This document shows positions 31,011 to 59,871 of a stretch of DNA of 64,000 nucleotides, piece by piece; position 1 is the first letter of the stretch; every line of letters starts with the position of its first letter. The notes below the pieces were generated by a model. That model was not told the origin of the DNA. It saw only the letters and a program-made list of their open reading frames with translations, and made no database searches. Position numbers and translations under genes: made by a program. The DNA comes from a phage. Where the stretch lies: sequence record PZ386978.1. One strand, given 5' to 3'.

Positions 31011-31061
31011 AAGCCCTCCTATACAAGATATAGTATAAGGTACTCTTCCCTGAGCACCTTG

Positions 31062-31590
31062 TCAACTTAGTTTTGCAAACTCTCCGTGGAGTTTTACAGC
31101 AGCTTCACAGTAAGCTTTATGGGCTTCTTCAGGTGTGTCATAGTAGCCTAATGACATCTTTTTACCTTTATAGCTTATTTGTGCAACCCACCTGCCAGAC
31201 TTCTTCTTCAGGCTTACACCTTTATAGCCTGATTTATTGGTGGATAGTTTGCTTTTATTCCAAGCACTTTGGCAGTCATCTGCTTCTCTTAAGTTTACAA
31301 CCCTGTTATCAAGGGAGTCCCCATTAATATGGTCAATAACACCTTTCGGTAGCCTACCATACACGTACAGCCATGCGAGTCTGTGTGCTTTATGTGCTTT
31401 CTTGTCAAAATAGATAGTAATCTGCTTATGACCAGTTGAGTCAATCTGGATGCTCCCCGCTACCTGTCCTGCGTACTTACTATTAAAGACTTTAACAGCC
31501 CTTGAGTCACCCTCTCTACGAAGCCAAGTAAAGACCCCTGTTTCGGGGTCATAGTGTAGTAGTTCCTTTAAACGTTCTTGTGTAATCATT
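31062..31590 (-). CDS. HNH homing endonuclease with AP2-like DNA-binding domain
   Basis: HNH segment HRLAWLYVYGRLPKGVIDHINGDSLDNRVVNL; AP2-like SGYKGVS...GRWVAQISYKGKKMSLGYYDTPEEA; start trimmed to the internal ATG (MITQERLKELLHYDPETGVFTW) that has a GGTGA ribosome-binding site. Confidence 0.8.
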
Positions 31591-31599
31591 TTGTCACCA

Positions 31600-34329
31600 T
31601 TAATGCACTTCCAACCACGATTTACCAACCTTACCAGTACCAGTTACCAGTGTTTCACTCTTTAGTCCTAAGTTCTTAGAGGCTTGACCGTAATACCAAT
31701 CAGTGACAGCCTTCACCTCTGCCGTCATACTTTCTGGGCATTCCCAACTCGTCTCGTCGTGATAGGAGCACAATAAACGAGCACCTATAGCTGGTTTGCG
31801 ACCGTTCAACTTCATCAAACCTTCGTCAATCATACGACGGCAAGCAAGGTTAATTGCCTCGTTCTGAATCTGACTTTCCGAACCCATGAGCAAATAATTC
31901 AATAACTTATGTGGAGATTTACACCACAACCAAGCTCCAGCAACCTTTACAAAACCTCCTTTAGAGATTGCAGCAGTCTTACCAAACACCTCTTCAAGTG
32001 CCTTTTTAGTTGCTTTGTAGTCAGCTTCCAAGTCATCTAGCAGCTTCTTAATTTTAGGCAAACGAATAAAGTAAGTCTGTTTAGTCAGCGCACCTTCCTG
32101 AGTAGTTGCAGCTTTAATTGTCTTAGCAAACTTCTCATCACCTGCACCGAACAGTAGTGCATAGATACCATTCTTAGCTTTCTTACGACCTTTGCTAATC
32201 TCATGAAGAAGATTCTCATCCTGAGTAGCTCGACAAGTCAAGATGTCCTGCTCATCGTTCAAGCTAAAGTAAATACTGTTCAGTGTATGTGCATCAGTCC
32301 CTGAATAGACAACGTACAGGTCATTCTCAGAGTCATAGCGAAGGTACTTATCAATTTCTGGGTTGAGATACTCATCAAAATGTTTGCAGTAATAGCGTCC
32401 ATCTTCTTGACGAATGAACTCAATTTCTTCTTTACCTTGTGTTACCGCTTTGGTGAAGTCTTTATCACCCATAAAGTTACAAAGGAGAACTAGCTGGGCT
32501 GAGTTCATGTCTACAGAGACAACGTTAGTCCCTTCCTCACAAATCCACACTGCCCTCATTGGTTCCCCATAGACAGCAGCACCAGACGGTACGTTTACAA
32601 TACCATATTGTGTCATACGTCCAGTTGAAGTACCAAACACCATTGCACCAGCACTAAGGCGACCATCAGGACGAATCTGGTTCAACCAACCTTTTTCATC
32701 ATCTTTTGAGTTCTCAATAGTTCTGCGTCGGTGCATTAAAGTATAGTACTTAGCAATCTTCTGTCCAAGCTCACCTTCAATCGTATCATAAGATGATTCA
32801 GTAAGTTTTGGTGAAGTACGGATTAAGCAAGGCTCAAGCAAATCTGTATATTTCTTCACAGACCAGTTATGCTCAATGTACTGTACACCTTCATGTTCAA
32901 CATAACTCAAACCACATCGTTCCACCATTTCCTGCCACTTAGGATGTTTTGTAATCATCTTTTTATTGTCTTTGAAACGACAAACTTTGACAGGGCGACC
33001 GTCTGAGTCTTTCTTGTAGTTCCAGTCATCTGGAATCCAACCAACTGATTTCAAGTAGTCTTTAACAACTGCTACCTGAGTCATACGAGAAACTTCGAAC
33101 TCAATTGGTGTATATGGTGCATCAATCAAACCTGTGTAGCGACTTGACTCAAGTTCAAAGTGGTTAACAACGTGACTGTTATAGTACTTCACAGTTTTGA
33201 CTGTTTTTACTGGCTTCCAGTCTTTGCACTTCTTACCAATCTTTGCGTTCAACTCATTGCAAATTGCACGAGCATCCTTCATTGCTACAAAACCTTCCTT
33301 GTACTCTTCACCAGTTACAGTGTTGGTTGGTGTATAGCAATTCCTTTTCTCAATGTTAAAAATCTTTGTAGTTGGCTTACCAAATGGCTTGATTTCATAT
33401 GTTTGCATCTCGCCGTTACGTACCTGCTGACGATACTTCGTCTTAGGGTACTTGGTAATTCTTTTCAGACCATCTGCATGACCGAATGTTTCAACATACT
33501 CATTCCAAGCTTTTGCAAACTCTTCTCCAGTGACTTTACCTTTGGTCTTAATAGTTGGAGGAAGATGTGGTTCAACCTCTGAAGCAAGCTCATTAGTCAA
33601 TTTGTCAAGTTCCTTCACATGGAACTCCATAAGCTCTTTATCAGCTTTCCAGCCATTAATAGCTTGTTGACTCATCCAGAAAGATGTCTCTTTAGCTCGC
33701 ATGTAAGTCTCATAAGTGTCTATACCACACTTCTTAAGCTTGAGATACTCGTTATCAAGTGCCCGTTTAGTTTTGGCGTTAATACGGATATCTTCTACAA
33801 CACGAGTGAAGATTTCTGCATTCCACACACCCCAATGTTCAATCTCTGGTTTACGGACACCAACACGAGCACCCCATGCAGCCAAACCATGAGCACCTTT
33901 ATAACCCTTTGGAGTTGGTCTATCCATCCACTGAACACGAGACTGGATAAGAGAATCCTGAAAGAAATTACTCCACGGCTTACATTTTGGATTATCAAAG
34001 TTCCATAAATCAGGTGCAATGTGATTGAAAACCCACCAGTCATAGCCGAGACCATTATGGATGCAAAGACGTTTTGCCTTTAACGCAAATTCAACACCTT
34101 CACGTAAGCCGCCCTTGATGTACTTGGTATACTTGTGACCGAGGATAGGCTCATCTGTAAAGACCCATACAGGAGGCTCTTCATCGTCAGATTTATAGTC
34201 TGCAAAAGCCATTACGTGAACTTTAGTGAACTCAAGGAGTAAACCATCAGTCTCTGTATCACCAACTAAATGTAAGTTTTTAAAATCTACGTTTTCCATT
34301 TTTACTCCCTCTAAAATCATTAACCTCAT
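31600..34329 (-). CDS. DNA polymerase, family A (T7-like), with 3'-5' exonuclease domain
   Basis: 909 aa; exo motif VGDTETDGL; motif A-like VSVDMNSAQLVLL; motif B-like KKAKNGIYALLFGAG; motif C SYHDE. Confidence 0.9.
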   Translation of the reverse strand: MRLMILEGVKMENVDFKNLHLVGDTETDGLLLEFTKVHVMAFADYKSDDEEPPVWVFTDEPILGHKYTKYIKGGLREGVEFALKAKRLCIHNGLGYDWWVFNHIAPDLWNFDNPKCKPWSNFFQDSLIQSRVQWMDRPTPKGYKGAHGLAAWGARVGVRKPEIEHWGVWNAEIFTRVVEDIRINAKTKRALDNEYLKLKKCGIDTYETYMRAKETSFWMSQQAINGWKADKELMEFHVKELDKLTNELASEVEPHLPPTIKTKGKVTGEEFAKAWNEYVETFGHADGLKRITKYPKTKYRQQVRNGEMQTYEIKPFGKPTTKIFNIEKRNCYTPTNTVTGEEYKEGFVAMKDARAICNELNAKIGKKCKDWKPVKTVKTVKYYNSHVVNHFELESSRYTGLIDAPYTPIEFEVSRMTQVAVVKDYLKSVGWIPDDWNYKKDSDGRPVKVCRFKDNKKMITKHPKWQEMVERCGLSYVEHEGVQYIEHNWSVKKYTDLLEPCLIRTSPKLTESSYDTIEGELGQKIAKYYTLMHRRRTIENSKDDEKGWLNQIRPDGRLSAGAMVFGTSTGRMTQYGIVNVPSGAAVYGEPMRAVWICEEGTNVVSVDMNSAQLVLLCNFMGDKDFTKAVTQGKEEIEFIRQEDGRYYCKHFDEYLNPEIDKYLRYDSENDLYVVYSGTDAHTLNSIYFSLNDEQDILTCRATQDENLLHEISKGRKKAKNGIYALLFGAGDEKFAKTIKAATTQEGALTKQTYFIRLPKIKKLLDDLEADYKATKKALEEVFGKTAAISKGGFVKVAGAWLWCKSPHKLLNYLLMGSESQIQNEAINLACRRMIDEGLMKLNGRKPAIGARLLCSYHDETSWECPESMTAEVKAVTDWYYGQASKNLGLKSETLVTGTGKVGKSWLEVH

Positions 34330-34344
34330 ACATTACTGCAAAAA

Positions 34345-34378
34345 ATTATAAAAAGCAAGTTGACAATGCACTTGACAA
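34345..34378. promoter_or_regulatory. Divergent promoter region between the polymerase (-) and the 34557 gene (+)
   Basis: Two plus-strand TTGACA boxes (34360-34365, 34373-34378; second is the TTGACAAGGTG motif) and a minus-strand TATAAT (plus coordinates 34345-34350); exact start sites not determinable by eye. Confidence 0.35.
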
Positions 34379-34556
34379 GGTGTTAATCTTTGCGAAGTGG
34401 GTTTTTACTTAAAAGGTTACTTAACAGTTTAACTATACAGATACTTTAAAACTCTTAAAAGATTATTTAATAGCTTTTAAAAAGCTTTAAAGTATAACGT
34501 ATAGAATACGTTAAGATAAAAGATTAAAACTTAATAGTTACTTAAAAGAGGCTTAC

Positions 34557-34979
34557 ATGCAGAAAATGTTTGTTCACCCAGACATAGCTGACTTTGTTAG
34601 AGCTTTGCAGAAGTTGGAAGAACTTGACATTGCTGCTCAACGGGAATATGCTCACCATCACAGGAGAATGGTTGATATACAACATGAAATAGAGTTGTCT
34701 GAAAACTATGAAGATGACTTAAAATGCTCTGTATTTGAGCATATGAAAGATGTTGCTACAGCGAGACGTAAAGCTAAAGACACAGTTGCTTTACTAGATT
34801 CTCTTAAAAAGAGGTTGCAAAGTGGTACAGACCTGTGTAATCTGGCGTCACTGATTAACGATGTTGAAACTTCTTGGGATAGGCACTATTATCCACGCTC
34901 TGAAAAGACACTTGACTTTTCTTCATCAGAAAACTTAAAATGTTCTAGAAAGAAACTTAACCAACTGAGAGAGAAATAA
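34557..34979 (+). CDS. Hypothetical protein
   Basis: 140 aa ORF, first gene of the plus-strand replication block. Confidence 0.5.
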   Translation: MQKMFVHPDIADFVRALQKLEELDIAAQREYAHHHRRMVDIQHEIELSENYEDDLKCSVFEHMKDVATARRKAKDTVALLDSLKKRLQSGTDLCNLASLINDVETSWDRHYYPRSEKTLDFSSSENLKCSRKKLNQLREK

Positions 34980-34980
34980 T

Positions 34981-35781
34981 ATGAATATCGATGTAGAAAA
35001 GATGCTTGAAGAAAAAGGTATTGACGAAGCATTTTTAATCAATGCCGTAGAAAGTATGGCTATGATTCTTCGTGGGAACAACTACACAGAACAGTTTATG
35101 CCTTCAAGCTATAACTTGCCTGAAGACAAGTCTGATAACGGTGCTTTTGCAGAACAGGTTAACATGATGTTGACAGACACTACACTTGCTCTGGCATCTA
35201 TTGCGGTTGGTGTTGATGCACTTGCTGAGTTTATTTTTTATGAAATGCAAAAGAATGACTATATCAGGATGTCAGACGAAGATAAGGAACTGTTGCTGAC
35301 TAAGGATACTGATTTCCTTATTGACATGCTTATCTCATCAACTAGTGCTGTTATGGCTGCTCTTGAGAAGCGTATGGAAGAAAAGCTGTCACGATATGAA
35401 AAGCTTGATTGGGGCGTAGAAGAATTAAGCCCACGAATCAAGGAGATTATCCAGCAAACTAAAGAGTCTTTGGAAGAAGCTGTTGAAAATGACTCTGTAG
35501 CTGATATAGAACCACTTCAGGTGAAAGTTGCACTGATGATTCCAGCTATCTCTACGATGATGAATATCGTTGCACTAATCCAACTTTCACAGATGATGGG
35601 TATGAGTATTAAGTTTATTGAGGAGATGACTGGCGGTGTCAGTATGCAAGCAATCAATGATGTTTTGGTGAACATTGGTGCTTCAATCATTGAAGAGAAA
35701 CTACGCATTAACTTCGGTGATGATTTTGTGAAGCAACTCTCAGCTATGGCTGAAAAAGAGTCTGCTGAGCAACTGCACTAA
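34981..35781 (+). CDS. Hypothetical protein
   Basis: 266 aa acidic, helix-rich ORF. Confidence 0.5.
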   Translation: MNIDVEKMLEEKGIDEAFLINAVESMAMILRGNNYTEQFMPSSYNLPEDKSDNGAFAEQVNMMLTDTTLALASIAVGVDALAEFIFYEMQKNDYIRMSDEDKELLLTKDTDFLIDMLISSTSAVMAALEKRMEEKLSRYEKLDWGVEELSPRIKEIIQQTKESLEEAVENDSVADIEPLQVKVALMIPAISTMMNIVALIQLSQMMGMSIKFIEEMTGGVSMQAINDVLVNIGASIIEEKLRINFGDDFVKQLSAMAEKESAEQLH

Positions 35782-35798
35782 GTCTTTATAAATCTTAC

Positions 35799-35823
35799 AA
35801 GCCTCCTTAGTTGGGGGCTTTTT
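35799..35823 (+). terminator. Intrinsic terminator candidate
   Basis: Stem AAGCCTCC / GGGGGCTT (one G-U pair), loop TTAGTT, then TTTTT. Confidence 0.5.
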
Positions 35824-35842
35824 AGTAATTAATGGAGATAAA

Positions 35843-36586
35843 ATGAATAAAATCATCGCATTTACTGGAAAGGCACGTTCTGGAAAAGACACCTCATGTT
35901 CTATTGTGAAGAACATCTTAGAGGATGAGTATGGCTACAATGTTGAAGTAATGGCCTTTGCAGACAACCTTAAACTATCTGCATCAAAGATATTTGACTT
36001 GACTTGGAATGACCTGTACGGTGGAACTAAAGAGACTCTACAGGTTTTTGACTTATCATATCCTGAACTGATGTTTAAAGTTACGGAAGCTATGGAGTTC
36101 ACCTTCAGAGATGAACGTTACCATATGGACTTCAAGCTTATGTCAGAGTTAACCGGACGATTAATCATAGAGCTTAAGAAGGTTGCTAAACCGACTCTAT
36201 TGACACGTCTGGGGTTTAGCAAAAAGTATAAATTCTCATCAAGACAAATTCAACAGATTTGGGGCACTGAAGTTGTCCGTAAAGTAATGGGCGACAAGTT
36301 CTGGTCTAAAGACCTTGAAAAAAGAATGGCTAGATTCTATGAAATGTGCTCACTTAGAAATCAATATGGTTTTGTCTTAATCAGCGATTTAAGATTTGAC
36401 TCTGAAGCTGAATGGCTGAGTAGATTTGCACACCAAACTATTGAAGTAAAAAGAGACAATGTGGACAAAGTTTCATCACATGTTTCAGAAAATGGGATTT
36501 CTACAAAATATGAGCGTGACATTATTCATAATAATGGTACTCTTGCAGACCTTGAGAACAAGCTAAGAGCCATCATTAAAGTTTAA
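35843..36586 (+). CDS. Deoxynucleoside monophosphate kinase
   Basis: 247 aa; P-loop AFTGKARSGKDT at the N-terminus; overall architecture like T4-type dNMP kinases. Confidence 0.7.
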   Translation: MNKIIAFTGKARSGKDTSCSIVKNILEDEYGYNVEVMAFADNLKLSASKIFDLTWNDLYGGTKETLQVFDLSYPELMFKVTEAMEFTFRDERYHMDFKLMSELTGRLIIELKKVAKPTLLTRLGFSKKYKFSSRQIQQIWGTEVVRKVMGDKFWSKDLEKRMARFYEMCSLRNQYGFVLISDLRFDSEAEWLSRFAHQTIEVKRDNVDKVSSHVSENGISTKYERDIIHNNGTLADLENKLRAIIKV

Positions 36587-36594
36587 AAGAGAGA

Positions 36595-36795
36595 ATGAAG
36601 ATGAGAGTAAAAGACAATTTTAAAGTTATTGACCACCGTTTAGTGGAACTCTCATCTCTTTCCAATGAGGTAATGATTGAACGTCTTAAGAGAGTTGAAT
36701 CACGAAGGAAAGAGATTGCAGATGAAATTCATGAACTGGACAAGATTGAAAATGGATTAAAAGCAGAACTACAACGAAGAGGTGCTAATGTCTAA
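36595..36795 (+). CDS. Hypothetical small coiled-coil protein
   Basis: 66 aa ORF overlapping the primase-helicase start. Confidence 0.4.
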   Translation: MKMRVKDNFKVIDHRLVELSSLSNEVMIERLKRVESRRKEIADEIHELDKIENGLKAELQRRGANV

Positions 36796-38773
36796 AGGTC
36801 GTAAATTGAAAGAGGCTGGTCAGTTTGTTGGTCATTGTGCATGTCCACGTTGTGGTTCATCAGATGCTGGTTCAATCTATCATCATGACGATGATTCTTA
36901 TTCGATGACTTGCTTTAGTTGTAACAAAGGTTTCCCAGAGTGGGATTTTGATAAAGGACAAATCGTGAGCACTTATTCTACTGGTTCAGACAATAAAAAC
37001 CGTACTTTCCGTGGAATGGATTTAGACGATGTGAAAGAAAACCTTGAAGCGATGGACTTGAAAGATAGGAAGATTCCTGCAAAAGTCCTTGAACGCTTAG
37101 GTATCAAGGTAGACATTGACAGTGATGGTGAAATTGATGCGCATTTCTATCCAACTTACAAACGTAATGAAGATGGTAAGCTAGAGCACGTCGGTTACCG
37201 TGTACGTCATCGTTATCCAGAAGACCATCCAAAAGAACACCTACGAGGTAAGTTAAAAGACTTCTCAGGTGGCGTTGGAGACATTAAAGGTGAACTGGCA
37301 ATGTTCGGTTCATGGATTGCTCCAGAAGGTGGTAACCGTCTATTCATCTGGGAAGGTGAGATGGAATGTGCGACAGCAATCTATATGACTTCTCTTGCGA
37401 TTAAGGACAAGTCTCGTCGTAAGAATTACTGTCACGTATCTGTTCCATCAGGTGCAAACATTAAGTCTATCAAAGACAACTATCAGTACATCACATCATT
37501 TGATGAGATTTACTTGTGCTTTGATAACGATGAAGCAGGTGCTAAAGCTACCAAAGAGGCTGCTGGTATCCTACCTATTGAGAAGGTTCGTTTATTCCAG
37601 TATCCAGAGGGTGTAAAAGACCTTAATGAATGGTGGACAAAGTTCTATAAAGAGAAAGATACAGTTCTGGAAGGATTTAAGCAGCGTATCTACAATGCAC
37701 CTCGTTACTGTCCTGCTGGTATCAAGAACTTCGCAGATGGTTTTGAGGCAATGAAGAATCGTGGTCAGATTCCATTGATTCCTTTCCCAGAATCTTTCGG
37801 AGATTTGAACAGACTGACTTATGGTGGTTATGGTCTAGGTGAGATTACAACTCTGGCAGCACCATCTTCAGTGGGTAAATCAGCATACACTCGTGAAATG
37901 ATTTACACAGCTTGGAAAGATACCGATTACAATATTGGTGTAATTCCTGTAGAAGATACCTATGAAGAGTTGATGGAGATGCTCTGTGCAATCCACCTAA
38001 GCAAGCAGATTTCTGAGATTCCTTATGACGAACGTGATTGGGATGAATTGAAGGAAGCACACGCAGAACTATCTAAAGGTCGTCGTATCCACATCGTAGA
38101 CCATCAAGGGGCAATTGACCAAGATAACTTGCTGGAGTTTGTTGACTATCTTGTTAATAGTTTAGACTGTAAGATTATTATTCTTGACCCTATTACGTTG
38201 GCTCTGTCACGTTCAGATACGGATGAAGAGGAAGTTTTGTCTGAGCTATTGCGTCGTTGCAAACGCTACCAGTATGCACAGGTAAACGTCTGTCACGTTC
38301 GTAAAAGTGCAGGTGGTCAGAAGGCTAACTCCGAAGGTGGAGATATCTCTGAAGAGGATATTAAAGGTTCTGGTGCGTATTTCCAGATTTCTATGAACAA
38401 CATCCTGTTAATGCGTAACAAAGTTGACCCAGACCCTGTTAAGAAAAACTTGACAAAAATCAAGCTAACTAAATGTCGTCGTCACGGTAAGTCAACGGGT
38501 ATTGCTGGTCATACTTGGTACAATCCAGATACAGGACGCCTCATCAAAGCATCTGGTTGCGGAGTTGACATTGATGGTGCAGCAGAAAATATTCGCCAAC
38601 AGTTTGGTATTGGTGAAGCTGAAGACCATTACGATGACTCTTTGCCACATTATGAGGATGAAGTATTTGACCGTGAGACTGGTGAAGTCTATACTGAAGA
38701 GCAGCGTCAAAGCTCAACGATTCCACCTGTATTAAGTGAGGATGCAGATGACTGCCCATTCGAAACTGAGTGA
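36782..38773 (+). CDS. Bifunctional DNA primase-helicase (T7 gp4-like)
   Basis: N-terminal zinc ribbon CACPRCG...CFSCNKG; TOPRIM-like FIWEGEMEC and YLCFDNDEAG; helicase Walker A LAAPSSVGKSA. Confidence 0.9.
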   Translation: MLMSKGRKLKEAGQFVGHCACPRCGSSDAGSIYHHDDDSYSMTCFSCNKGFPEWDFDKGQIVSTYSTGSDNKNRTFRGMDLDDVKENLEAMDLKDRKIPAKVLERLGIKVDIDSDGEIDAHFYPTYKRNEDGKLEHVGYRVRHRYPEDHPKEHLRGKLKDFSGGVGDIKGELAMFGSWIAPEGGNRLFIWEGEMECATAIYMTSLAIKDKSRRKNYCHVSVPSGANIKSIKDNYQYITSFDEIYLCFDNDEAGAKATKEAAGILPIEKVRLFQYPEGVKDLNEWWTKFYKEKDTVLEGFKQRIYNAPRYCPAGIKNFADGFEAMKNRGQIPLIPFPESFGDLNRLTYGGYGLGEITTLAAPSSVGKSAYTREMIYTAWKDTDYNIGVIPVEDTYEELMEMLCAIHLSKQISEIPYDERDWDELKEAHAELSKGRRIHIVDHQGAIDQDNLLEFVDYLVNSLDCKIIILDPITLALSRSDTDEEEVLSELLRRCKRYQYAQVNVCHVRKSAGGQKANSEGGDISEEDIKGSGAYFQISMNNILLMRNKVDPDPVKKNLTKIKLTKCRRHGKSTGIAGHTWYNPDTGRLIKASGCGVDIDGAAENIRQQFGIGEAEDHYDDSLPHYEDEVFDRETGEVYTEEQRQSSTIPPVLSEDADDCPFETE

Positions 38774-38843
38774 TAGTTATAAAAGAGAGGGGTTCACACC
38801 CTTCTTTGAAGAAAAAAGTTTAAATAAATTTCAGGAAGAGTGT

Positions 38844-38872
38844 TTGACAAAGGTTGATAGGTTCTATAGAAT
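38844..38872 (+). promoter_or_regulatory. Sigma70-like promoter candidate (TTGACA-17-TAGAAT)
   Basis: Hexamers read directly, just downstream of the primase-helicase stop. Confidence 0.45.
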
Positions 38873-39025
38873 GCTCTACATGAAATGTGATGGGGGTGTT
38901 GAGGTAGAAGAAAAGTTCCATCACAGTATTATTACAGTCACTATTACTATACCTCAGCATAATATTGGTTGGCTGTTTATAATTAAAGAAAATGTGTTTG
39001 AATATCAAGTATATCGGAGAATATC

Positions 39026-39175
39026 ATGAAACACTCTAAAGCATTTGAAAAAGTTTTTGGGGATTCCTTAAAAGCCACTGCTGGAAAACCAGCAAAATAC
39101 TATGAAGAGAAACGTGTAAGAACTGGAAAAACTGCACGTAAAGCAGCTTCTAAAGATAAGCACAACTTCCAGTAA
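39026..39175 (+). CDS. Small basic protein (49 aa), below the ORF-track length cutoff
   Basis: ATG with GGAGA ribosome-binding site 5 nt upstream; product MKHSKAFEKVFGDSLKATAGKPAKYYEEKRVRTGKTARKAASKDKHNFQ. Confidence 0.4.
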   Translation: MKHSKAFEKVFGDSLKATAGKPAKYYEEKRVRTGKTARKAASKDKHNFQ

Positions 39176-39182
39176 TTAGTAT

Positions 39183-39211
39183 TTGACAATAGAGTATCAA
39201 CAAATTAGAAT
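39183..39211 (+). promoter_or_regulatory. Sigma70-like promoter candidate (TTGACA-17-TAGAAT)
   Basis: Hexamers read directly, 37 bp upstream of the SSB-like gene. Confidence 0.5.
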
Positions 39212-39247
39212 TGGTACTCTTCATAAATTGAGATAGAGGTTTAAATA

Positions 39248-40105
39248 ATGTCTAAAGTTGTTAAAATGAAAGCTCCGGTAGAGAAGTACAATGGTACTGA
39301 ACGTCAAACTCTGCGTTACCTGCTGAAAGATGTCTGGTTTTATTACCTGAACACTTCACCACGTCCGGGAAAAGGTAAGTCTATTGATAAGAAATTCCCA
39401 GGAAAAGATTGTAACTACAGCGTATCAATTCTGGCAGAGGACGGTAACAAACTGTTTAAAGAGTTTACTAAGTCTAAGAAAAATCCAGAAGGCTGGGATA
39501 AAGTTACTACTGAAGCAGTTGATGCAGATGACTTCGAAGAGAAGTTTGGTTGTAAACCACCTTTTGAAGCAGACACTTACTACATCTTGAAAGTAAGTCG
39601 TGCAGCAGCTTATAAAGATGGTGCTGTATGGACAGCTAAACAGTCATTCCCTGTTATGCTTATTGAAGAAGTAAATGGTAAGCGTGTAGCTGTTAAACAG
39701 CCGATGAAGAAAATCAAAGCTCAAGCATCTGATAAACATGAAGATGACAAGAACTATGATGTAATTCATCCAGATATTGCAGTTGGTAACGGTTCTTTTG
39801 GTAGTGTGATTCTTTCTACTCACTTCTACACTTTTGAGAACAATGTTCTGACAAAACCTATTCAGGAGCAGTTTATCATTGATACTCTTGTGCCTTACAC
39901 TGGTGGTAATGGTACTAACGGTGAACCTGAACTGGATGAAGACGAACTGGCTATGCTTGGTCTTGATGGTGTCGAAGATAACGGTGAAATCACTGAAGAA
40001 GACGCAACAGACCATAAATCTTCGAATGATTCTGATGATGGCGATGACGAAGACTTGCCAGACCCAGATGACGAAGAAGATGAAGACTTCGATACAGAAG
40101 ACTAA
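39248..40105 (+). CDS. Single-stranded DNA-binding protein (T7 gp2.5-like) with acidic C-terminal tail
   Basis: 285 aa; strongly acidic C-terminus ...DDGDDEDLPDPDDEEDEDFDTED; sits between primase-helicase and exonuclease genes. Confidence 0.6.
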   Translation: MSKVVKMKAPVEKYNGTERQTLRYLLKDVWFYYLNTSPRPGKGKSIDKKFPGKDCNYSVSILAEDGNKLFKEFTKSKKNPEGWDKVTTEAVDADDFEEKFGCKPPFEADTYYILKVSRAAAYKDGAVWTAKQSFPVMLIEEVNGKRVAVKQPMKKIKAQASDKHEDDKNYDVIHPDIAVGNGSFGSVILSTHFYTFENNVLTKPIQEQFIIDTLVPYTGGNGTNGEPELDEDELAMLGLDGVEDNGEITEEDATDHKSSNDSDDGDDEDLPDPDDEEDEDFDTED

Positions 40106-40167: not shown

Positions 40168-41214
40168 ATGGAGAAGTACACATTAACAAAGCTTCCCGAT
40201 TCAGTTACACATGTTTTTATTGACTCTGACAGCATTGCCTATAAAGGTGCTTGTGTAGTTGAGAAAGCAAAATATAAATATGTCAATAAACTCACAGCAG
40301 AAGAATCTGATTCGTTTGATAATGCAAAAGATGCTGCAAGATGGTTAGCAGACCAGAGAATCCTTGTGGAAGAGCTTGGTCTGACATTTGATGAAGATGA
40401 ATGGGAAAGACAGACTTGGAAAGAAGCTAAGAGTGAAAAAGAAGCTATCATGGCTACTCAACAGGTGCTTCAGGAATGGCTTAAGGTTGTTGGTAAAGAA
40501 AGAACTTGGGTAGGTTATTTAACAGAGAAAGGTGTGCATAAACATAAAGACGTTAAAGGTCTTGAGCACCAATATCAAGGCAACCGTAAAGATGCTGTCA
40601 CACCAACACACCTAGTTGCTTGTCGTGAGTATCTTCTGTCAAGACCAGAGTTCAAACTAATTCTTGATGGGTTTGAAGCCGACTCTATCGTTATTGCTAA
40701 AGCTGAAAAGATGGGTAAAAAGGCTGCCTTAATGAGTATTGATAAAGACCTTCGCCAAGCTGAAGGAACTTACTGCATTGATATGACCTATGAAAAGTCA
40801 CCTTTGATTTTCATTGCTGATAACAACGTTGGTGAAATTTGGGATTGCCCAATAAAATCAACACCAAAAGCTAAGAAGACAGTTGGTGTAGGTTTTAAAT
40901 TCCTTTGTTATCAAGCTGTGGCTGGTGATAACGCGGATAATTATTTTGGTTTAAAGGGCGTTGGTAAGGCTACTGTAATGAAAGCCCTTGAAGGTAAAAC
41001 CACCTACAAAGAGTGTCTTGATGCAATTTATGAGCTTTATGCTAAGAAAGAGTCGTACACTTATGTCTCGTGGGATGGTCAAACAATTACCAGAACACCC
41101 TTAGAGTTAATGCAGCAACACTTTTTCTTAGCTTATCAGGAAAGAAACAAGAAAGACGATTTCACTTTTGATAAGTATGGGTGGACACCAAATGTTAACT
41201 CAACAAACTCTTAA
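40168..41214 (+). CDS. 5'-3' exonuclease / RNase H (FEN family)
   Basis: 348 aa; N-terminal VFIDSDSIAYK; helix-hairpin-helix-like GDNADNYFGLKGVGKATV. Confidence 0.75.
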   Translation: MEKYTLTKLPDSVTHVFIDSDSIAYKGACVVEKAKYKYVNKLTAEESDSFDNAKDAARWLADQRILVEELGLTFDEDEWERQTWKEAKSEKEAIMATQQVLQEWLKVVGKERTWVGYLTEKGVHKHKDVKGLEHQYQGNRKDAVTPTHLVACREYLLSRPEFKLILDGFEADSIVIAKAEKMGKKAALMSIDKDLRQAEGTYCIDMTYEKSPLIFIADNNVGEIWDCPIKSTPKAKKTVGVGFKFLCYQAVAGDNADNYFGLKGVGKATVMKALEGKTTYKECLDAIYELYAKKESYTYVSWDGQTITRTPLELMQQHFFLAYQERNKKDDFTFDKYGWTPNVNSTNS

Positions 41215-49914: not shown

Positions 49915-50862
49915 TGTAGAGCATTTTTATCACCATACCATAACGAACATGGTGAAGAGTTTTATGTAGGTCGTGCTAATATTGGTGCTGTATCTTTGAA
50001 CTTACCAATGATTTACCAGTATTCTAAAGAGAATGGCTTAGATTTCTGGAAAGAGCTTGATAAGTACCTAGAAATGATTCGTAGTTTCCACAAGAAACGC
50101 TATGAAATGATTGCCAATATGCCAGCAAGTTCTAATCCTCTTGCATTTACACAAGGTGGTCTGTACAAAGGAACTAAGAAGCCTACTGACAGGGTTGGTT
50201 GGGATATTGTGAAGTCCTTCACAGCTTCTTTTGGGGTTACTGCGCTTGATGAGCTATCTGTTCTTGCTGAAGGTAAACGACTTCATGAAGTTGGAAGCTA
50301 TAGTTTTGCATATGATGTTCTGGCATACATCAACATGAAAACTGAAGAGTTTAAGAACGAAGATGGCTTCTTGTATGCGGTATATGGCACTCCAGCAGAA
50401 TCACTTTGTGGAACTCAGTTAAAACAGTTCAGAGATATGTTTGGCGTTATTAAAGGTGTCTCTGACAAGGAATACTTTACAAACAGTTTCCATATGAATG
50501 TTGCAGCAGACATCTCACCATTTGAGAAGCAGGACTTAGAAGAACCATTCTTCCATATCTGTAGAGGTGGCAGAATCCAGTATGTCAGGGTAGCTAACCC
50601 AGAAAACTTAACAGCACTTAAGAGTTGTATTACGAGAGGTATGTTGAAAGGTTTCTATCAGGGACTTAACTTTGACTTAGCAATCTGTGAACATTGTGGT
50701 AACAGACCAAAGGCTGATGTTGAAGAATGTGAGGTTTGTCATTCACATGACATCTCTGTGATTAACAGGGTGTGCGGGTACTTGTCATTCACAAAAATTA
50801 AAGGTCAGTCTCGAATGAATGATGCAAAAATCGCTGAGATTCGTGACAGGATTTCTATGTAA
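49915..50862 (+). CDS. nrdD: Anaerobic ribonucleotide reductase, exon 2 (glycyl-radical domain)
   Basis: Open frame from CRAFLSPY...; C-terminal glycyl-radical motif RVCGY; the ORF-track start at 49996 is a TTG inside the exon. Confidence 0.85.
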   Translation, partial: CRAFLSPYHNEHGEEFYVGRANIGAVSLNLPMIYQYSKENGLDFWKELDKYLEMIRSFHKKRYEMIANMPASSNPLAFTQGGLYKGTKKPTDRVGWDIVKSFTASFGVTALDELSVLAEGKRLHEVGSYSFAYDVLAYINMKTEEFKNEDGFLYAVYGTPAESLCGTQLKQFRDMFGVIKGVSDKEYFTNSFHMNVAADISPFEKQDLEEPFFHICRGGRIQYVRVANPENLTALKSCITRGMLKGFYQGLNFDLAICEHCGNRPKADVEECEVCHSHDISVINRVCGYLSFTKIKGQSRMNDAKIAEIRDRISM

Positions 50863-50872
50863 AACTTGACAA

Positions 50873-50909
50873 GGTGATGTGGGTCTTGATAGGCTTACAT
50901 CACCTTTTT
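50873..50909 (+). terminator. Terminator-like hairpin after nrdD
   Basis: Stem GGTGATGT / ACATCACC, 16-nt loop, then TTTTT; overlaps a TTGACAAGGTG motif. Confidence 0.45.
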
Positions 50910-50925
50910 ATTTGGAGTTACACTA

Positions 50926-53014: not shown

Positions 53015-53335
53015 ATGAGCAAAGTTTATAACACTCGCAAATTACAGATTTTCGTACTGTGCCAGTTTATGGCTAAAGAATATAACTTCTACTATTGTGG
53101 TACAGGTTTTATTAGCGATGATGATGGCTCATACCTCCCATTCAAAGAAGCTGTAAAACTCTTTAATGAAGAGAAAAGCTCTAAGAAAGATATTGAAAAG
53201 GTTAAACTAACCTACAGCAAGAAAGATAAGAAGATTATCTGCCTAGATAACTTTGTAAAAGTTACTGGAGAAGCAAAAGAGTTTATGGATGAGAGTGAAA
53301 TTTCATTCACAAGTATCTTGAAAGTAGCTCAGTAA
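53015..53335 (+). CDS. Hypothetical protein
   Basis: 106 aa ORF followed by a terminator. Confidence 0.45.
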   Translation: MSKVYNTRKLQIFVLCQFMAKEYNFYYCGTGFISDDDGSYLPFKEAVKLFNEEKSSKKDIEKVKLTYSKKDKKIICLDNFVKVTGEAKEFMDESEISFTSILKVAQ

Positions 53336-53348
53336 ACAGATACTATAA

Positions 53349-53373
53349 GGGAACTGTAAAGGTTCCCTTTTTT
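53349..53373 (+). terminator. Intrinsic terminator
   Basis: Stem GGGAAC / GTTCCC, loop TGTAAAG, then TTTTTT. Confidence 0.6.
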
Positions 53374-53387
53374 ATTTTGGAGATAAA

Positions 53388-55067: not shown

Positions 55068-55076
55068 AAGTTTATA

Positions 55077-55096: not shown

Positions 55097-55112
55097 TGAG
55101 AGAGATTAAAAG

Positions 55113-56894
55113 ATGACTAAATCACTTTATGCAGTACCAGCAGGTTTAAATGCAGATGCTTACAAGGCATCACATATATATCAGTATCCAGATGCTACGC
55201 AATATCTTATGTTGAACCTAACACCACGTAGCGACAAATGGTTTAACAGCCCCTTAGCAATTGATGGTGTAGTGGCTTTTGGTATTCAACGTTTCGTTAA
55301 AGATTACTTGATAGACCATTGGAATGCCACCTTCTTTGAACGTGACAAAAAAGAAGCAATTGACGAAATCTTAGAAGTCATGAATGGTGTTCTGGGTAAA
55401 GATGCTATCGGTCGAGAGCATTGGGAAGCACTTCACGACTTAGGTTATCTACCAGTTGAAGTATACGCTGTAGAAGAAGGTACAGTTGTCCCTATGCGTG
55501 TCCCAATGATTGTCTTCCAGAACACTGTTTCAGGTTTCCATTGGGTAGCAGGTTATCTGGAAGATGCTTTCTCTGCTGAGATTTGGAAGGCTTGTACCAT
55601 TGCAACTATTGCATTGCATTATAAACGCATCTGTAAGAAGTGGGCTGACCTTACTTGTGACAATGACTTACATTTACCTTATCAGTGCCATGACTTTGCT
55701 ATGCGTGGTATGTCCGGCTTTACTGATGACGCATTTAACGCTGTAGGTCACTTAACCAGCTTTAAAGGAACTGATAGCTTCCCTGCTGTATACACGGCTA
55801 AACGCATCTATGGACAGTCTTACCCAATTTCTGATATTGGTAGTTCTGTACCAGCCACTGAACACTCTGTAATGTGTGCAAACATTGCTTGGGAAGGTGG
55901 TAATGAATTGATTGAAGAGGAAAGACGCTTTAAAGGTGAATTACAAACCTTCCGTCGCTTCTTAACAGAAACTTACCCAACTGGTATTGCAAGTATTGTT
56001 TCAGACACTTATAACTTCTGGAGAACTGTGTCAGAAATCTTACCAGCACTTCGCAAAGAGATTATGGAACGTGACGGTAAACTGGTAATTCGTCCTGACT
56101 CTGGAGACCCTGTACACATTGTCACAGGTTATAAAGCAATCCACTTAGAGTGTGCTAAAAAGGCTTATTATGAGCACCTAAGCAAGCTGGAAGCCAGTGA
56201 CACAATGCTGAATGCTGTTCTGAACATGAAGCTTGAAAACATCAGCTATGGTATTGCTGGATGGCTACTGTCAGAAGGCTACGAAATGGTTGTTGACCGA
56301 GAAGACTTTGAAGTTGCTGATACAGTGATGTTGAAAAATGCTTATATGGTTGGCTCTGCAAACGTTGTAACACGTCCTGTAGCAGAGATTGATGGAGCTA
56401 TTAAGACACTGTACAACATCTTTGGAGGAACTATTAACTCGAAAGGGTTTAAGGTACTGGATGAGCACATCGGCCTTATCTATGGTGACTCTATCACACT
56501 GGAACGTGCAAACGAAATCCTGAAGCGTCTGTATGAAATGGGTTTTGCAAGCTCTAACGTAGTGTTTGGCGTAGGCTCTTACACTTACCAGTACATGACT
56601 CGTGACACCTTTGCATTTGCTGTTAAAGCAACTCTTGCAAGCATTGGTGGTAAAGAGATTATGCTTGCAAAAGACCCTAAAACAGATAGTGGTGTTAAGA
56701 AGTCTGCTTTTGGTGGTGTAGCACCTATGTGGGATGGTGATAAGTTGAAAGCTGTAGATGGCTACGGATTCCAGAGCTTTGCAGATGCACTTGAACATCC
56801 AGCTTGTGCTTTACGTTTAGTCTTTAGTGACTCTGAGCAGTACGGTTACACATCTCTTGGTGATATTCGAAATAATATTGACAAGCAGCTTTAA
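55113..56894 (+). CDS. nadV: Nicotinamide phosphoribosyltransferase-like protein (NadV / candidate nicotinamide ADP-ribose transferase)
   Basis: 593 aa with NAMPT-family length and overall sequence character. Confidence 0.8.
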   Translation: MTKSLYAVPAGLNADAYKASHIYQYPDATQYLMLNLTPRSDKWFNSPLAIDGVVAFGIQRFVKDYLIDHWNATFFERDKKEAIDEILEVMNGVLGKDAIGREHWEALHDLGYLPVEVYAVEEGTVVPMRVPMIVFQNTVSGFHWVAGYLEDAFSAEIWKACTIATIALHYKRICKKWADLTCDNDLHLPYQCHDFAMRGMSGFTDDAFNAVGHLTSFKGTDSFPAVYTAKRIYGQSYPISDIGSSVPATEHSVMCANIAWEGGNELIEEERRFKGELQTFRRFLTETYPTGIASIVSDTYNFWRTVSEILPALRKEIMERDGKLVIRPDSGDPVHIVTGYKAIHLECAKKAYYEHLSKLEASDTMLNAVLNMKLENISYGIAGWLLSEGYEMVVDREDFEVADTVMLKNAYMVGSANVVTRPVAEIDGAIKTLYNIFGGTINSKGFKVLDEHIGLIYGDSITLERANEILKRLYEMGFASSNVVFGVGSYTYQYMTRDTFAFAVKATLASIGGKEIMLAKDPKTDSGVKKSAFGGVAPMWDGDKLKAVDGYGFQSFADALEHPACALRLVFSDSEQYGYTSLGDIRNNIDKQL

Positions 56895-56909
56895 AAGTAT
56901 ATGATAAGA

Positions 56910-56930
56910 GGCTCCTACGGGAGCCTTTTT
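56910..56930 (+). terminator. Intrinsic terminator
   Basis: GGCTCC-TACG-GGAGCC followed by TTTTT. Confidence 0.65.
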
Positions 56931-56947
56931 AATTTCTGGAGAAAGAT

Positions 56948-57441: not shown

Positions 57442-57469
57442 TTTAACAGTAAACTAAGAGGAAAGTATT

Positions 57470-59836
57470 ATGCGCATGGTAAACGACCACGCAGAAGTGA
57501 TTAAGAGTTCAACTTCTTTGGAGACATCTCAAGCACAGATTACAATGACACCTGAAATGTTCAGCCTTTTGAGTTCAGGTGTATACACATTCAAAGAAAG
57601 GGCAGTAATTCGTGAACTGTCATGTAACGCAGTAGATGCTCAAAAAGAAGCTGGAAAAGAGAACATCCCATTCCATGTGCATTTACCTACTCGATTTGAG
57701 CCTTACTTTGAAGTCCGTGACTTTGGAACTGGTTTAACCCATGACAAAGTAATGAGTTTGTATCTGAACTATGGGGCTTCTACGAAGAATGACTCCAATG
57801 ATTACATTGGTGCAATGGGTATCGGCTCAAAATCCCCATTTGCAATTGCTCAGTCATTCACAGTATCTAGCTATGTTGATGGTGTTGTTAATAAGTACTC
57901 TGTTTACCTTGAGAATGGTATCCCTCAAGTAACTAAGCTTACTACCAACCCAACAAATGAACCCAATGGTTTAGCTGTACGTGTAGCAGTTGCTGACCAT
58001 CGTATCTCAAAGTTCTTTGAAGAGGCTGGTCACGTATACTCATACTTTGCTGTAAAACCAGAAAGTAATATTGTGTACGACGATGTATTAGCAGATATGA
58101 ACGTCATTGCCCGTGAAGAGGGTGTTTATGATGCCATGATTCATAAGCAAAGTTGGCGCTCTAGCGGTAACAGGACAGAGTTTAATGTGGTGATGGGTAA
58201 TATCACCTATCCAGTTAACATGGAAGCGTTACTTGGTGATGATTTCTTCAAAGTCTTGCCAGAATTTTTCCGTAGGAGCGTAGACCTTGTAAACATCTAC
58301 ATGCCTATCGGTTCAGTTGCTATTGCAGCTTCTCGTGAAGCATTGCAGATGAATGATACGACAAAAAATGTTATCATTGAAGCTACTAAAAAGATAACTG
58401 AAGCAATTACAAAGGATGTTATCAAGAAAGTTAACAGCCAACCTACACTCATGGATGCTGCACAGGCTTATGCTGAGTTACGTTTGAACTCACGAGAGAT
58501 GTTTAATGCTGTGTGTCCAAAGCTAGAGTGGGGAGGCGTTAAGCTTGATTCTCTGGAAGAAGAATTACTAAACATTCGTCGTGGGATTATCTACGCAGAA
58601 GACGGCTCAGTCATTTATGAACGTGACGGTAAAGGTAATATCAAGGTTGATAGGAACGGGAACAATATCCCTAAAGTGGATTATCTTTATAACCCAGTTG
58701 CTTATGTCAAGTTCAACTCTTTAGAGAGTAAGATTCGTGCAACAGCACTTTCCTACACTCAAGAGGCAAGTATGTTCAATATCTTTGGTGCAATGCGTAA
58801 AAGCCAAATTGAACAGTTTTTGTTCGTGATTAATGACCGTCGTAATAAAAATGGCACTGAGAAGACTGTAGGCCGCAATCAGATTCTGCGTGGTGCATGT
58901 CGAGACTACGCTAACGAGTCAAGCCTGTTCCACAGATACAATGGTATTGTGTTTGTATTCTCGACTGAAAAAGAGTTAGATGATTTAATCAATCTGCATA
59001 AACTTGATAAAAGTTTGTTAAAGATTGTGAAGATGTCTGATAAGGAACACCATTATCAGCGTAAAGAAGCTGTGAGGGGTGTTGTAAAACTCTGGAAAGC
59101 TGTTCCATCAGAAACTAAAGCTTCATACACAGAGGTGTCAGAAGACCTAGATACAATTGAAGAACCCCAGCTTTATATCAAGGCAGTAGGCGACACAGTT
59201 GATGGTGAATGTTTTTGCTCATCCCCAGAAGATGTAGCTAAAACAATTGCTAATTTTATAGGAAAAACAGTCTATGTTTTCCGAAAAGCAAATTGGAAAA
59301 AGATACCAGAAGACTGGATTGAAGTAGATGAGAAGCTATTGAATGACAGCTTAACTGATGTTCACTGGATTAATCATAACAGGTATATGACACGTATCTA
59401 TATGAATGGTGTCCTTGACCTTACAAGTAGTTGGATTATTGCCAGAAACTTTACGTTTAATAACAAGAAGATTTCTCGCGGGTATTGCTATTCACGAGAT
59501 ACAAACAAAACCATCTTCTTAGAAGGTAATGAGAATGCTGTTGAGGCAATGTTTGGTAAGATTCAGTATGTGGCTGCACCGTTTGCATACACTTACACTA
59601 TCAGTGTTCTTCAGGATTTGAAGTCATGCCTTGACAATGATACAAAACTGTACAAAAAGATTAAGAAAGCGGGTGACCGCATGGTTATCAAACTGACAAA
59701 CTACCTTTCAAAAAGAAAACAAGAAAACTTCTTGCTTTCCCATTTAGATTGGAATAAAGTGTCACCCATCGAAGTGAGTAAGTTCTTAGGCTTTGATGTG
59801 AAGTGTGTTCCAGAAGGGACTACAATTTACGATTAA
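57470..59836 (+). CDS. rIIA: rIIA-like protein with GHKL-type ATPase N-terminal domain
   Basis: 788 aa; GHKL N-box ELSCNAVDA and G1 box DFGTGL; directly upstream of an rIIB-sized gene. Confidence 0.7.
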   Translation: MRMVNDHAEVIKSSTSLETSQAQITMTPEMFSLLSSGVYTFKERAVIRELSCNAVDAQKEAGKENIPFHVHLPTRFEPYFEVRDFGTGLTHDKVMSLYLNYGASTKNDSNDYIGAMGIGSKSPFAIAQSFTVSSYVDGVVNKYSVYLENGIPQVTKLTTNPTNEPNGLAVRVAVADHRISKFFEEAGHVYSYFAVKPESNIVYDDVLADMNVIAREEGVYDAMIHKQSWRSSGNRTEFNVVMGNITYPVNMEALLGDDFFKVLPEFFRRSVDLVNIYMPIGSVAIAASREALQMNDTTKNVIIEATKKITEAITKDVIKKVNSQPTLMDAAQAYAELRLNSREMFNAVCPKLEWGGVKLDSLEEELLNIRRGIIYAEDGSVIYERDGKGNIKVDRNGNNIPKVDYLYNPVAYVKFNSLESKIRATALSYTQEASMFNIFGAMRKSQIEQFLFVINDRRNKNGTEKTVGRNQILRGACRDYANESSLFHRYNGIVFVFSTEKELDDLINLHKLDKSLLKIVKMSDKEHHYQRKEAVRGVVKLWKAVPSETKASYTEVSEDLDTIEEPQLYIKAVGDTVDGECFCSSPEDVAKTIANFIGKTVYVFRKANWKKIPEDWIEVDEKLLNDSLTDVHWINHNRYMTRIYMNGVLDLTSSWIIARNFTFNNKKISRGYCYSRDTNKTIFLEGNENAVEAMFGKIQYVAAPFAYTYTISVLQDLKSCLDNDTKLYKKIKKAGDRMVIKLTNYLSKRKQENFLLSHLDWNKVSPIEVSKFLGFDVKCVPEGTTIYD

Positions 59837-59841
59837 AGTGT

Positions 59842-59871
59842 TTGACAAGGGGCTTCAAAGCCCCTTAGAAT
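59842..59871 (+). promoter_or_regulatory. Promoter candidate (TTGACA-18-TAGAAT) with a hairpin in the spacer
   Basis: TTGACAAGGGG motif; GGGGCT-TCAA-AGCCCC hairpin; 45 bp upstream of rIIB. Confidence 0.35.

Follow-up and report, generated by a model that had tools for sequence, protein, structure and literature searches.

A recurrent TTGACA word in a Felix O1-like phage is probably a sigma-70-type -35 hexamer set against RNA hairpins

Why should a phage genome carry, close to the starts of several genes, the hexamer TTGACA together with one and the same extension, so that the word TTGACAAGG(T/G)G recurs? The question arises from a stretch of 64,000 nucleotides (nt) of phage DNA (record PZ386978.1), the whole of which we call the window. 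A preliminary description had proposed that the word marks either a phage-specific promoter class or the site of a transcription factor. Here we argue that the motif is real and non-random but composite: in the reading that we consider likely, if well short of certain, it arises where a perfect host-type (sigma-70) -35 hexamer lies directly against one arm of an RNA hairpin or, in a single case, inside a promoter with two TTGACA boxes. It would then be no signal of its own, and the units that contain it would be akin to the promoter-early stem-loop (PeSL) cassettes described below.

The pattern TTGACAAGGKG matches the window exactly four times, against 0.09 matches expected from dinucleotide shuffles, none of which (0 of 100) reaches four. 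Plain TTGACA occurs 69 times against 67.8 expected, that is, at chance, and the excess therefore resides in the 5-nt extension. The recurrence that the preliminary description reported holds, as does its pair of identical 12-mers (34371-34382 and 50865-50876). Placement is uneven too. Some ten TTGACA hexamers lie between genes or overlap a stop codon, and all four extended copies belong to these, while none of the ~59 coding hexamers is extended (hypergeometric probability 210/864,501 = 2.4e-4). Identity between copies ends after 11-12 nt, and beyond that point the sites differ completely. Below we refer to the copies by their first base as 34372, 50866, 59842 and, on the minus strand, 31065 (Table 1); the first three lie where they had been placed, whereas the last spans 31055-31065 and not 31045-31055, a shift of 10. 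Where all copies had been called intergenic, the hexamer of 31065 (31065-31060) overlaps the TGA stop (31064-31062) of a gene for an HNH-AP2 endonuclease.

To place the window, bases 30000-40000 were matched to 277 phage records, nearly all of them Felix O1-like myoviruses, with Salmonella phages DaR-2019b and vB_Si_DR094 (DR094 hereafter) as the best at 97% identity. Judging from these matches the window belongs to a Felixounavirus, a Felix O1-like myovirus of the Ounavirinae; Felix O1 itself is 100% identical to it across 34300-34560. In the phage collection, roughly 240-275 genomes of Felixounavirus and Mooglevirus gave matches. We fetched ~80 related loci from IMG/VR and aligned each site. 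Gene layout follows the DR094 annotation and our own map of open reading frames (ORFs).

What, then, might the extension be? At three of the four copies a hairpin begins at the last A of TTGACA (fold z = -7.4 at 50866, -2.3 at 59842 and -1.6 at 31065). The remark in the preliminary description that two copies, 50866 and 59842, run into hairpins proved to be the key clue, although its count was one short, with 31065 doing so too. The strongest terminator-like stems between 44 and 64 kilobases (kb) of the window mostly begin AAGG, AAGAGG, AAAAGG or AGG; a -35 hexamer ending in CA that is set against an AAGG-type stem therefore reads TTGACAAGG.

The case for an RNA structure is clearest at 50866, where the segment 50871-50913 is predicted to be a canonical intrinsic terminator for rightward transcripts. 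Across 11 distinct sequences 98.3% of the stem cells are paired. One GC-to-AU change is compensated, the G of AGGTG turning into A along with its partner, the next pair occurs as three pair types, and 4 of the 16 pairs in the window are G.U. Together, pairing, compensation and G.U pairs argue for an RNA hairpin in rightward transcripts and against a DNA palindrome or protein site. The extension takes the forms AAGGTA (with compensating CACTACCTT), AATGTG and ATGGTG in relatives, with TTGACA unchanged throughout. A plain terminator, moreover, would need neither an invariant loop nor the hexamer TAGGCT, and here both TAGGCT and the loop TCTTGA are invariant in 16 distinct relatives. Downstream, GGAG at 50914 is followed by ATG at 50925.

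At 31065 the 59-nt segment with the hairpin folds at -15.8 kcal/mol. All 17 distinct relatives again have TTGACA unchanged, whereas the 4 nt upstream differ among them and the extension has a variant AGGGTG. A TAnnnT hexamer (TACCTT or TACCAT) is present in 17 of 17 variants; an alternative TATACT at 22 nt looks better but decays to TATACA in many relatives. A GGAGG ribosome-binding site (~31019-31015) and ATG 31010 follow.

The third hairpin site, 59842, lies at the junction of rIIA and rIIB and has the layout TTGACA-AGGGGCTTCAAAGCCCCT-TAGAAT. Its -10 element is TAGAAT or TAAAAT in all relatives, and in more distant ones the extension loses an A, which leaves a 17-nt spacer. The stem sequence differs: relatives carry GGGGCTGAAAAGCCCC, and L031 carries AAGTGGTC..GGCCACTT; where rIIB is only 59% identical, TTGACA at this junction leads into a hairpin whose sequence is unrelated and whose loop holds a -10-like element. 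The order of -35, hairpin and -10 is kept at this junction across three unrelated stem sequences.

Taking the sites together, no relative in which the element is present at a site departs from TTGACA there (16-18 distinct sequences for each site), whereas the 4 nt upstream and the extension vary. A TAnnnT hexamer 17-18 nt downstream is kept at every site, with the proviso that the second box at 34372 has none of its own, and a TTGACA-like -35 with TAnnnT 16-18 nt further on, as in sigma-70 promoters, is found at 59842, 50866, 31065 and 34360. The putative leaders are ~20-40 nt long, with GGAG or GGAGG ahead of ATG 31010, 50925 and 59916, where promoters of these genes would be expected to lie. 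The earlier statement that most copies lack a good -10 needs qualification in this light. It fails for 59842, which has TAGAAT at 18 nt; it describes 50866 (TAGGCT) and 31065 (TACCTT) correctly insofar as these have only the minimal TAnnnT, which is nonetheless kept in relatives; and 34372, though truly without a -10 of its own, lies in the spacer of another -35, at 34360, with TGtTAATCT at 18 nt. Likewise, the copies are promoter-associated, as had been supposed, but an extension that varies among relatives is unlike a separate recognition element. We think that the copies are best read as host sigma-70-type promoters with a perfect -35 and weak to good -10 elements and not as a phage-specific class. 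The enzyme is likely to be host RNA polymerase, because Felix O1 and VpaE1 have been made in E. coli extract with sigma-70 polymerase: both phages were produced from purified genomes there, with core RNA polymerase and sigma-70 as the only primary proteins of transcription (PMC10933291). The Felix O1 genome paper found neither a phage RNA polymerase nor a specificity factor (PMC3185647).

Table 1. Coordinates of the motif copies, their hairpins and -10 elements, related promoters and gene blocks. Numbers between hexamers are spacer lengths in nt; z, fold z-score.
Feature	Position	Strand	Remarks
Motif copy 1	31055-31065	-	TTGACA -35 hexamer 31065-31060; AGGTG begins hairpin arm
Hairpin AAGGTGCTC-AGGGAA-GAGTACCTT	31037-31060	-	9 pairs, one G.U; no T-run after
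-10-like TACCTT	31037-31042	-	17 nt from -35, within 3' arm
Box a, -35 TTGACA, AAAAAG before	34360-34365	+	divergent junction of DNA polymerase and replication genes
Motif copy 2 = box b (TTGACA 12 nt after box a) + AGGTG	34372-34382	+	in spacer of box-a promoter
Extended -10 TGtTAATCT	34381-34389	+	18 nt after box a; TG = end of AGGTG
Motif copy 3	50866-50876	+	-35 TTGACA 3 nt after nrdD stop; AGGTG begins terminator stem
Hairpin followed by TTTTTATTT	50871-50913 (stem 50871-50906)	+	16 pairs; z = -7.4
-10-like TAGGCT	50890-50895	+	18 nt from -35, at boundary of loop and 3' arm
Motif copy 4	59842-59852	+	-35 TTGACA after rIIA stop; AGGGG begins hairpin
Hairpin AAGGGGCT-TCAA-AGCCCCTT	59847-59866	+	fills 18-nt promoter spacer; z = -2.3
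-10 TAGAAT	59866-59871	+	18 nt from -35; rIIB starts 59916
Type-2 two-box promoter	other divergent junction		box a with TAGGCT or TAGTAT at 17 nt
Type-3 two-box promoter	small-gene region		13-nt offset, TGgTAACTT; enclosed in ACCCC..GGGGT hairpin with compensating changes
Putative promoter TTGACT-17-TGtTAATAT	22847-22903	+	-10 in loop of strong hairpin; z = -5.8
Putative promoter TTGACA (27079)-17-TATTTT	27051-27098	-	-35 in loop of 12-pair hairpin; variant TTGACAAGTCAGGTG; z = -3.8
Putative promoter TTGACA-16-TATACT	28828-28855	-	-10 overlaps 5' arm of hairpin TGGTGAGTA..TACTCACCA; z = -1.9
Variant TTGACAAAGG, TTGACA-17-TAGAAT	38844-38872	+	no hairpin, z = +0.6
Putative promoter TTGACA-17-TAGAAT	39183-39220	+	-10 in loop of hairpin AGAGTATCA..TGGTACTCT; z = -1.7
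Structural genes	up to ~23.5 kb	+	ORF map/DR094 annotation
Leftward block, DNA polymerase last	23.5-34.3 kb	-	ORF map/DR094 annotation
Rightward block, replication and nucleotide-metabolism genes	34.56 kb onward	+	ORF map/DR094 annotation

From the anatomy, conservation, covariation and flanking-gene variability of these sites we infer promoter activity, start sites, termination and escape along the following lines. Transcripts arriving from upstream would carry the whole hairpin; at 50866, with its U-run, they would terminate, and at 59842 and 31065, where the hairpin has no U-run, they would perhaps be paused, processed or stabilised. A polymerase that sets out from the embedded promoter would start inside or beyond the 3' arm, near 50902 (within the 3' arm of the 50866 hairpin), 59878 and 31030, so that its RNA would be free of the hairpin and could run on into the gene that follows, by way of a leader of 20-40 nt that contains a GGAG-type ribosome-binding site. 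A cassette of this kind would insulate neighbouring genes and restart transcription within a very short intergenic space.

The remaining copy, 34372, calls for a separate account. It forms the second (box b) of two TTGACA boxes in a promoter of the layout AAAAAGCAAG-TTGACA-ATGCAC-TTGACA-AGGTG-T-TAATCT, which sits at the head of the rightward replication-gene cluster. Here box a would pair with TGtTAATCT, and the TG of AGGTG would serve as its extended -10. Conservation of the two boxes and of TGnTA(A/G)TCT extends across Felixounavirus and Mooglevirus and takes in relatives with 91-93% identity in the DNA polymerase, while the linker of 3-4 nt varies freely; relatives have TGtTAGTCT or TGgTAGTCT as the -10, and the AGGGTG form of the extension is seen at this site as well. 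There are three such two-box promoters per genome, one of which, the type-2 site, is labelled 'promoter' by similarity in one GenBank record. Box b itself has no TAnnnT 16-19 nt downstream, whether at 34372 or at the corresponding place in the other two-box promoters, and its spacing to conserved bases further on is not kept, which led us to reject a -10 for it. Two other candidates at this locus were also discarded: a leftward promoter for the DNA polymerase, built on TTGTCA (the reverse complement of the boxes), whose TATAAT at 34345-34350 lies at 10 and 22 nt and is not conserved, and a small ORF across the two boxes (..VDNALDKV..), in which variation of the linker alters the encoded residue and the C-termini are not alike, as they should be in coding sequence.

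How unusual are these arrangements? PeSL cassettes have been described in the T4-type phages RB49/phi1, PST and nt-1 (Arbiol et al. 2010, PMC2839356; Comeau et al. 2014, PMC4122927). They combine a strong sigma-70-like promoter with a stem-loop that lies mostly between -35 and -10 or overlaps the -10 (PMC2839356), and they act as terminators and mediate modular shuffling (PMC2839356, PMC4122927). The cassettes of the window resemble them in having a near-consensus sigma-70 promoter with a stem-loop between, or overlapping, -35 and -10, often with G-run and C-run stems; in their intergenic location between an upstream stop and a downstream ribosome-binding site; in occurring several times per genome; and in bordering on genes in which close relatives differ from one another. 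They differ in that their bearers are Ounavirinae and not T4-type phages, for which reason we say 'PeSL-like' and claim no descent. The window copies, furthermore, share 11-12 nt as opposed to ~100 bp in PeSL, a U-run follows only one of the three hairpins, and homing endonuclease genes, not orphan genes only, adjoin two of the cassettes. PeSL cassettes also come with experimental promoter, terminator and mini-circle data, whereas the promoters and the terminator of the Felix-type ones are putative. Our search of the literature found no promoter/stem-loop cassette described for this phage group.

Two more familiar elements are recognisable within the cassettes. At 50866 the 16-pair stem followed by TTTTTATTT is that of an intrinsic A-tract/U-tract terminator, the AA of TTGACAAGG pairing with the first two T; such a terminator would nonetheless not have a conserved -35 and a -10-like hexamer built into it, and the hairpins at 59842 and 31065 are without the U-run. 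Likewise 34360 (TGtTAATCT), 22847 (TGtTAATAT) and the type-3 two-box promoter (TGgTAACTT) recall the extended -10 (TGnTAnnnT) class of sigma-70 promoter, the difference being that a perfect -35 is present too, along with a second perfect TTGACA in the spacer. In sum, the cassettes are PeSL-like and mostly ordinary, with box b as a small unexplained residue.

Several points weigh against this interpretation. Our literature search turned up generic promoter predictions and no transcription start, 3'-end or transcriptome study for Felixounavirus or other Felix O1-like phages. Both TAGGCT at 50866 and TACCTT at 31065 make weak -10 hexamers. A U-run is present at 50866 only, so that the hairpins at 59842 and 31065, with their modest fold z-scores, are not canonical terminators, and in the 31065 stem we saw no covariation among relatives even though the hairpin is kept. 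More generally, in intergenic gaps of 50-80 nt an overlap of promoter and hairpin is nearly unavoidable and by itself proves no coupled function. Finally, two features are left unaccounted for: the role of box b, a perfect and strictly conserved TTGACA, and the near-identity of the two-box module to one in T4-like contigs, where it lies on the strand opposite to the genes.

These last two features invite the idea that the two-box module (A-rich stretch, GTTGACAA, variable 4 nt, CTTGACAAGGTG, TAnnnT) is a regulatory device in its own right, with box b bound by something other than the sigma factor on box a, for example by a second polymerase contact or a regulatory protein. Such a device would head major early units of Felix O1-like phages and would have spread between, or arisen independently in, unrelated lineages that include low-GC T4-like ones. 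We know of no promoter element that a second perfect TTGACA in the spacer would fit. An exact-pattern scan of viral contigs recovered the module from a group of low-GC contigs (L195, L212, L213, L222, L224 and L241; IMG/VR, GC ~0.32) that have no protein similarity to the window but carry T4-type genes, among them one for a gp55-like protein closest to those of cyanophages. In these contigs AAAAAAGTTGTTGACAAAG..CTTGACAAGGTGTA forms a near-identical module of 33-35 nt, up to 35 nt of it identical to the type-2 two-box promoter, in a nearly invariant intergenic region of ~95 nt upstream of the gene for the gp55-like late sigma factor, but on the opposite strand, and 14 nt further on there is another TTGACA box, the third, in inverted orientation. 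The identity across lineages is, however, partly that of an A-rich stretch and a -35, which are also found in a Streptococcus phage promoter that lacks box b; the pattern used in the scan, moreover, forced the two boxes. Other matches, in L093 and further contigs, are coding sequence (VDKALDKVYDK) and reflect a coincidence of codons, and an origin in bacterial host promoters was set aside with 8 matches in bacterial genomes against ~4 by chance (our estimate). Box b may have a specific role, and the second box of the two-box promoters may bind a protein; as a whole we regard the device as unlikely.

A related proposal, close to the transcription-factor site originally envisaged, is that a phage or host regulatory protein binds the extended word, or else the two TTGACAA boxes together, and turns these promoters on or off. 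CTTGNCAAG is palindromic over 9 bp, the boxes repeat in direct orientation at a distance of 12 bp, and box b with AGGTG is strictly conserved in three two-box promoters and two genera while the linker varies. No -10 lies at a usable distance from box b. The 33-35-nt module on the strand opposite to the flanking genes in the low-GC T4-like contigs would suit a site that works in either orientation. Against this, TTGACAA is palindromic by construction, which deprives the palindrome of most of its weight, and the cross-lineage identity suffers from the same A-rich stretch, Streptococcus promoter and forced boxes as above. An operator, moreover, should keep its extension for the extension's own sake. 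We find it conserved at the two-box promoters and not at the hairpin sites, where it varies, once with compensation; nor is the C before TTGACA conserved. Pfam and PHROGs gave no DNA-binding assignment and no regulator among the neighbouring small proteins scanned, most of which have no known function. We look on a regulatory-protein site as quite improbable.

Could the copies instead mark a distinct regulated class, in which a perfect -35 with a minimal -10 renders the promoter strongly dependent on sigma region 4, so that a phage factor acting on region 4 or on polymerase could shut off or redirect the whole group? Three of the four sites do pair a perfect TTGACA with TAnnnT only (TAGGCT, TACCTT, TAATCT), and the timing of Felix O1 transcription is described as unknown (PMC3185647). 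The class is not uniform, though: 59842, 38844 and 39183 have good -10 hexamers, and 34360 has an extended -10, with which promoters usually rely less on the -35. A factor of this sort is not known, none emerged from Pfam scans of the neighbouring genes, and the extension plays no part in the model, to which we accordingly give little credence.

We are equally sceptical of the notion that the extension has no function and that the copies are paralogous promoter cassettes, generated by duplication or gene conversion, whose 11-12 nt of identity are a remnant of common ancestry. It is true that the cassettes stand at recombination joints, that related ones have been shuffled between genomes, and that 50866 has CTTGACAAGGTG and TAGGCTTA in common with the type-2 two-box promoter. 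But a remnant would hardly stop so sharply at 11-12 nt with wholly different sequence beyond, every base of the extension does something locally, be it in a compensated stem pair or in the TG of an extended -10, and the pattern persists across genera. A reading of AAGGTG as a Shine-Dalgarno sequence fails because only 50866 has a nearby ATG, which abuts AGGTG without a spacer, and sigma-32 or sigma-54 promoters find no matching second element, as judged by eye against the consensus sequences known to us.

Returning to the PeSL-like reading, the neighbourhoods of the cassettes point in the same direction. The 31065 cassette is constant while the gene upstream is that for HNH-AP2 or another and the gene downstream is one of two unrelated small genes, all four combinations being found. 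The 50866 cassette is preceded either by nrdD or by an endonuclease-like gene that has been inserted, and followed by any of at least three different genes; in DR094 it is placed after the inserted gene. In a close relative (L053), within the 25 kb that lie beyond the window, a variable small-gene region holds seven cassettes of the form TTTACA(R)GGGGCTTA..TAAGCCCC, each with TAnnnT at 17 nt. These seven, of the TTTACA(R)GGGGC kind, make up one family (A), next to a second family (B) of six, with long similarity. Among the cassettes of this region are the direct repeats of 57 bp and 39 bp listed, without interpretation, in the Felix O1 genome paper (PMC3185647), and their order and number differ between close relatives. 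All this suggests that the cassettes, like PeSL, are fixed joints between exchangeable genes. Homing endonuclease genes adjoin two of them, lying just upstream.

The same architecture, with hairpins placed variously relative to the promoter hexamers, recurs elsewhere in the window without the extended word (Table 1). At 39183 the hairpin becomes a perfect 9-pair stem in one relative. As stated in the preliminary description, 39183 and 38844 each have TAGAAT at 17-nt spacing. For 38844, which had been listed as an intergenic variant, TTGACAAAGG is indeed present, but the site falls inside an ORF of 97 amino acids that relatives annotate from an upstream GTG (38736-39029, GTG 38736), a start that is probably too far upstream. 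The site is probably the promoter of a short gene that starts at ATG 38880, and in many relatives its extension reads AAAGA. Segment 38780-38879, comprising a hairpin, an A-rich run and the TTGACA-17-TAGAAT promoter, is almost invariant, in contrast to what follows ATG 38880; this ATG is probably the true start of the gene, with almost no leader and without a ribosome-binding site.

If the PeSL-like reading is right, a puzzle raised by the Felix O1 genome paper, for which the passage of transcription through many terminators and its timing were unknown, receives a concrete and testable answer in the form of restart promoters in or against hairpins. The same paper found no promoter in the divergent region at the DNA polymerase (PMC3185647), which we find to be headed by a conserved two-box promoter. 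Felix O1-like phages serve in Salmonella typing, biocontrol and cell-free engineering, where knowledge of promoter and joint cassettes can inform the design of deletions and insertions. The broader point is a modest one: the promoter/stem-loop design of T4-type phages would also be present in unrelated virulent myoviruses.

A number of further observations concern promoters and leaders in the window. Two promoter-like pairs, TTGAAA-17-TACTAT (53318-53369) and TTGACA-16-TATGAT (56878-56929), end exactly where a terminator hairpin begins, so that a start ~7 nt later would fall within the 5' arm, a further manner in which promoter and stem-loop can be set side by side. In the long non-coding gaps 27007-27375 and 28591-28862 on the minus strand, G/T-rich runs recur with a beat of ~8-10 nt (..GGTAAGGTACGGCTAGGTCAGGTTAGGCACGG..), and both gaps have in common a hairpin (CATCACTTAAG.GTCTTCTAAGAGGGTTTTTAAG.GATG) and a TTGACA promoter; Tandem Repeats Finder reports weak periods of 10-20 nt only, and Rfam has no match there. 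Downstream of the two-box promoter at 34360, the long leader before the first rightward gene contains a perfect inverted repeat, AACGTAT-AGA-ATACGTT (34497-34513), that spans TATAGAAT and could be an operator or an RNA hairpin. More distant relatives have TATGTAT-AAC-ATACATA, the symmetry being kept through paired changes. The word CTTAAAAG occurs 14 times in the window where 5 would be expected (a count of 14 is reached by 1 of 100 shuffles), with three copies in the 34400-34550 leader (34408, 34454 and 34541) and 11 elsewhere, and words like ACTTAAAAG follow the other two-box promoters in a relative.

The last group of observations concerns mobile elements. Upstream of the 50866 cassette, nrdD (anaerobic ribonucleotide reductase) is in two parts, 47976-49175 and 49996-50862, which cover positions 1-250 and 284-560 of the Pfam NRDD profile. 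Between them lies a group I intron candidate at 49685-865 (33.1 bits, E = 2e-6) that scores below the Rfam gathering score, which no family reaches anywhere in the window, and the gene for an HNH_3 endonuclease (49288-49752) is inside the sequence that splits nrdD. In DR094 nrdD is uninterrupted, and the Felix O1 genome paper reports no insertion in the nrd genes (PMC3185647). Two paralogous HNH-AP2 homing endonucleases, 42% identical to each other, are encoded at 31062-31628 (-) and 41168-41692 (+), and with the intron endonuclease they bring such genes in the window to three. A terminator-like repeat GACCCCGAAACAGGGGTC at 31550(-) and 41231(+) was rejected as a terminator, as it codes for a motif common to these two paralogues: the identical repeat GACCCCGAAACAGGGGTCTTTACTTGG at 31533-31550 (-) and 41231-41248 (+) is coding sequence for DPETGVFTW.

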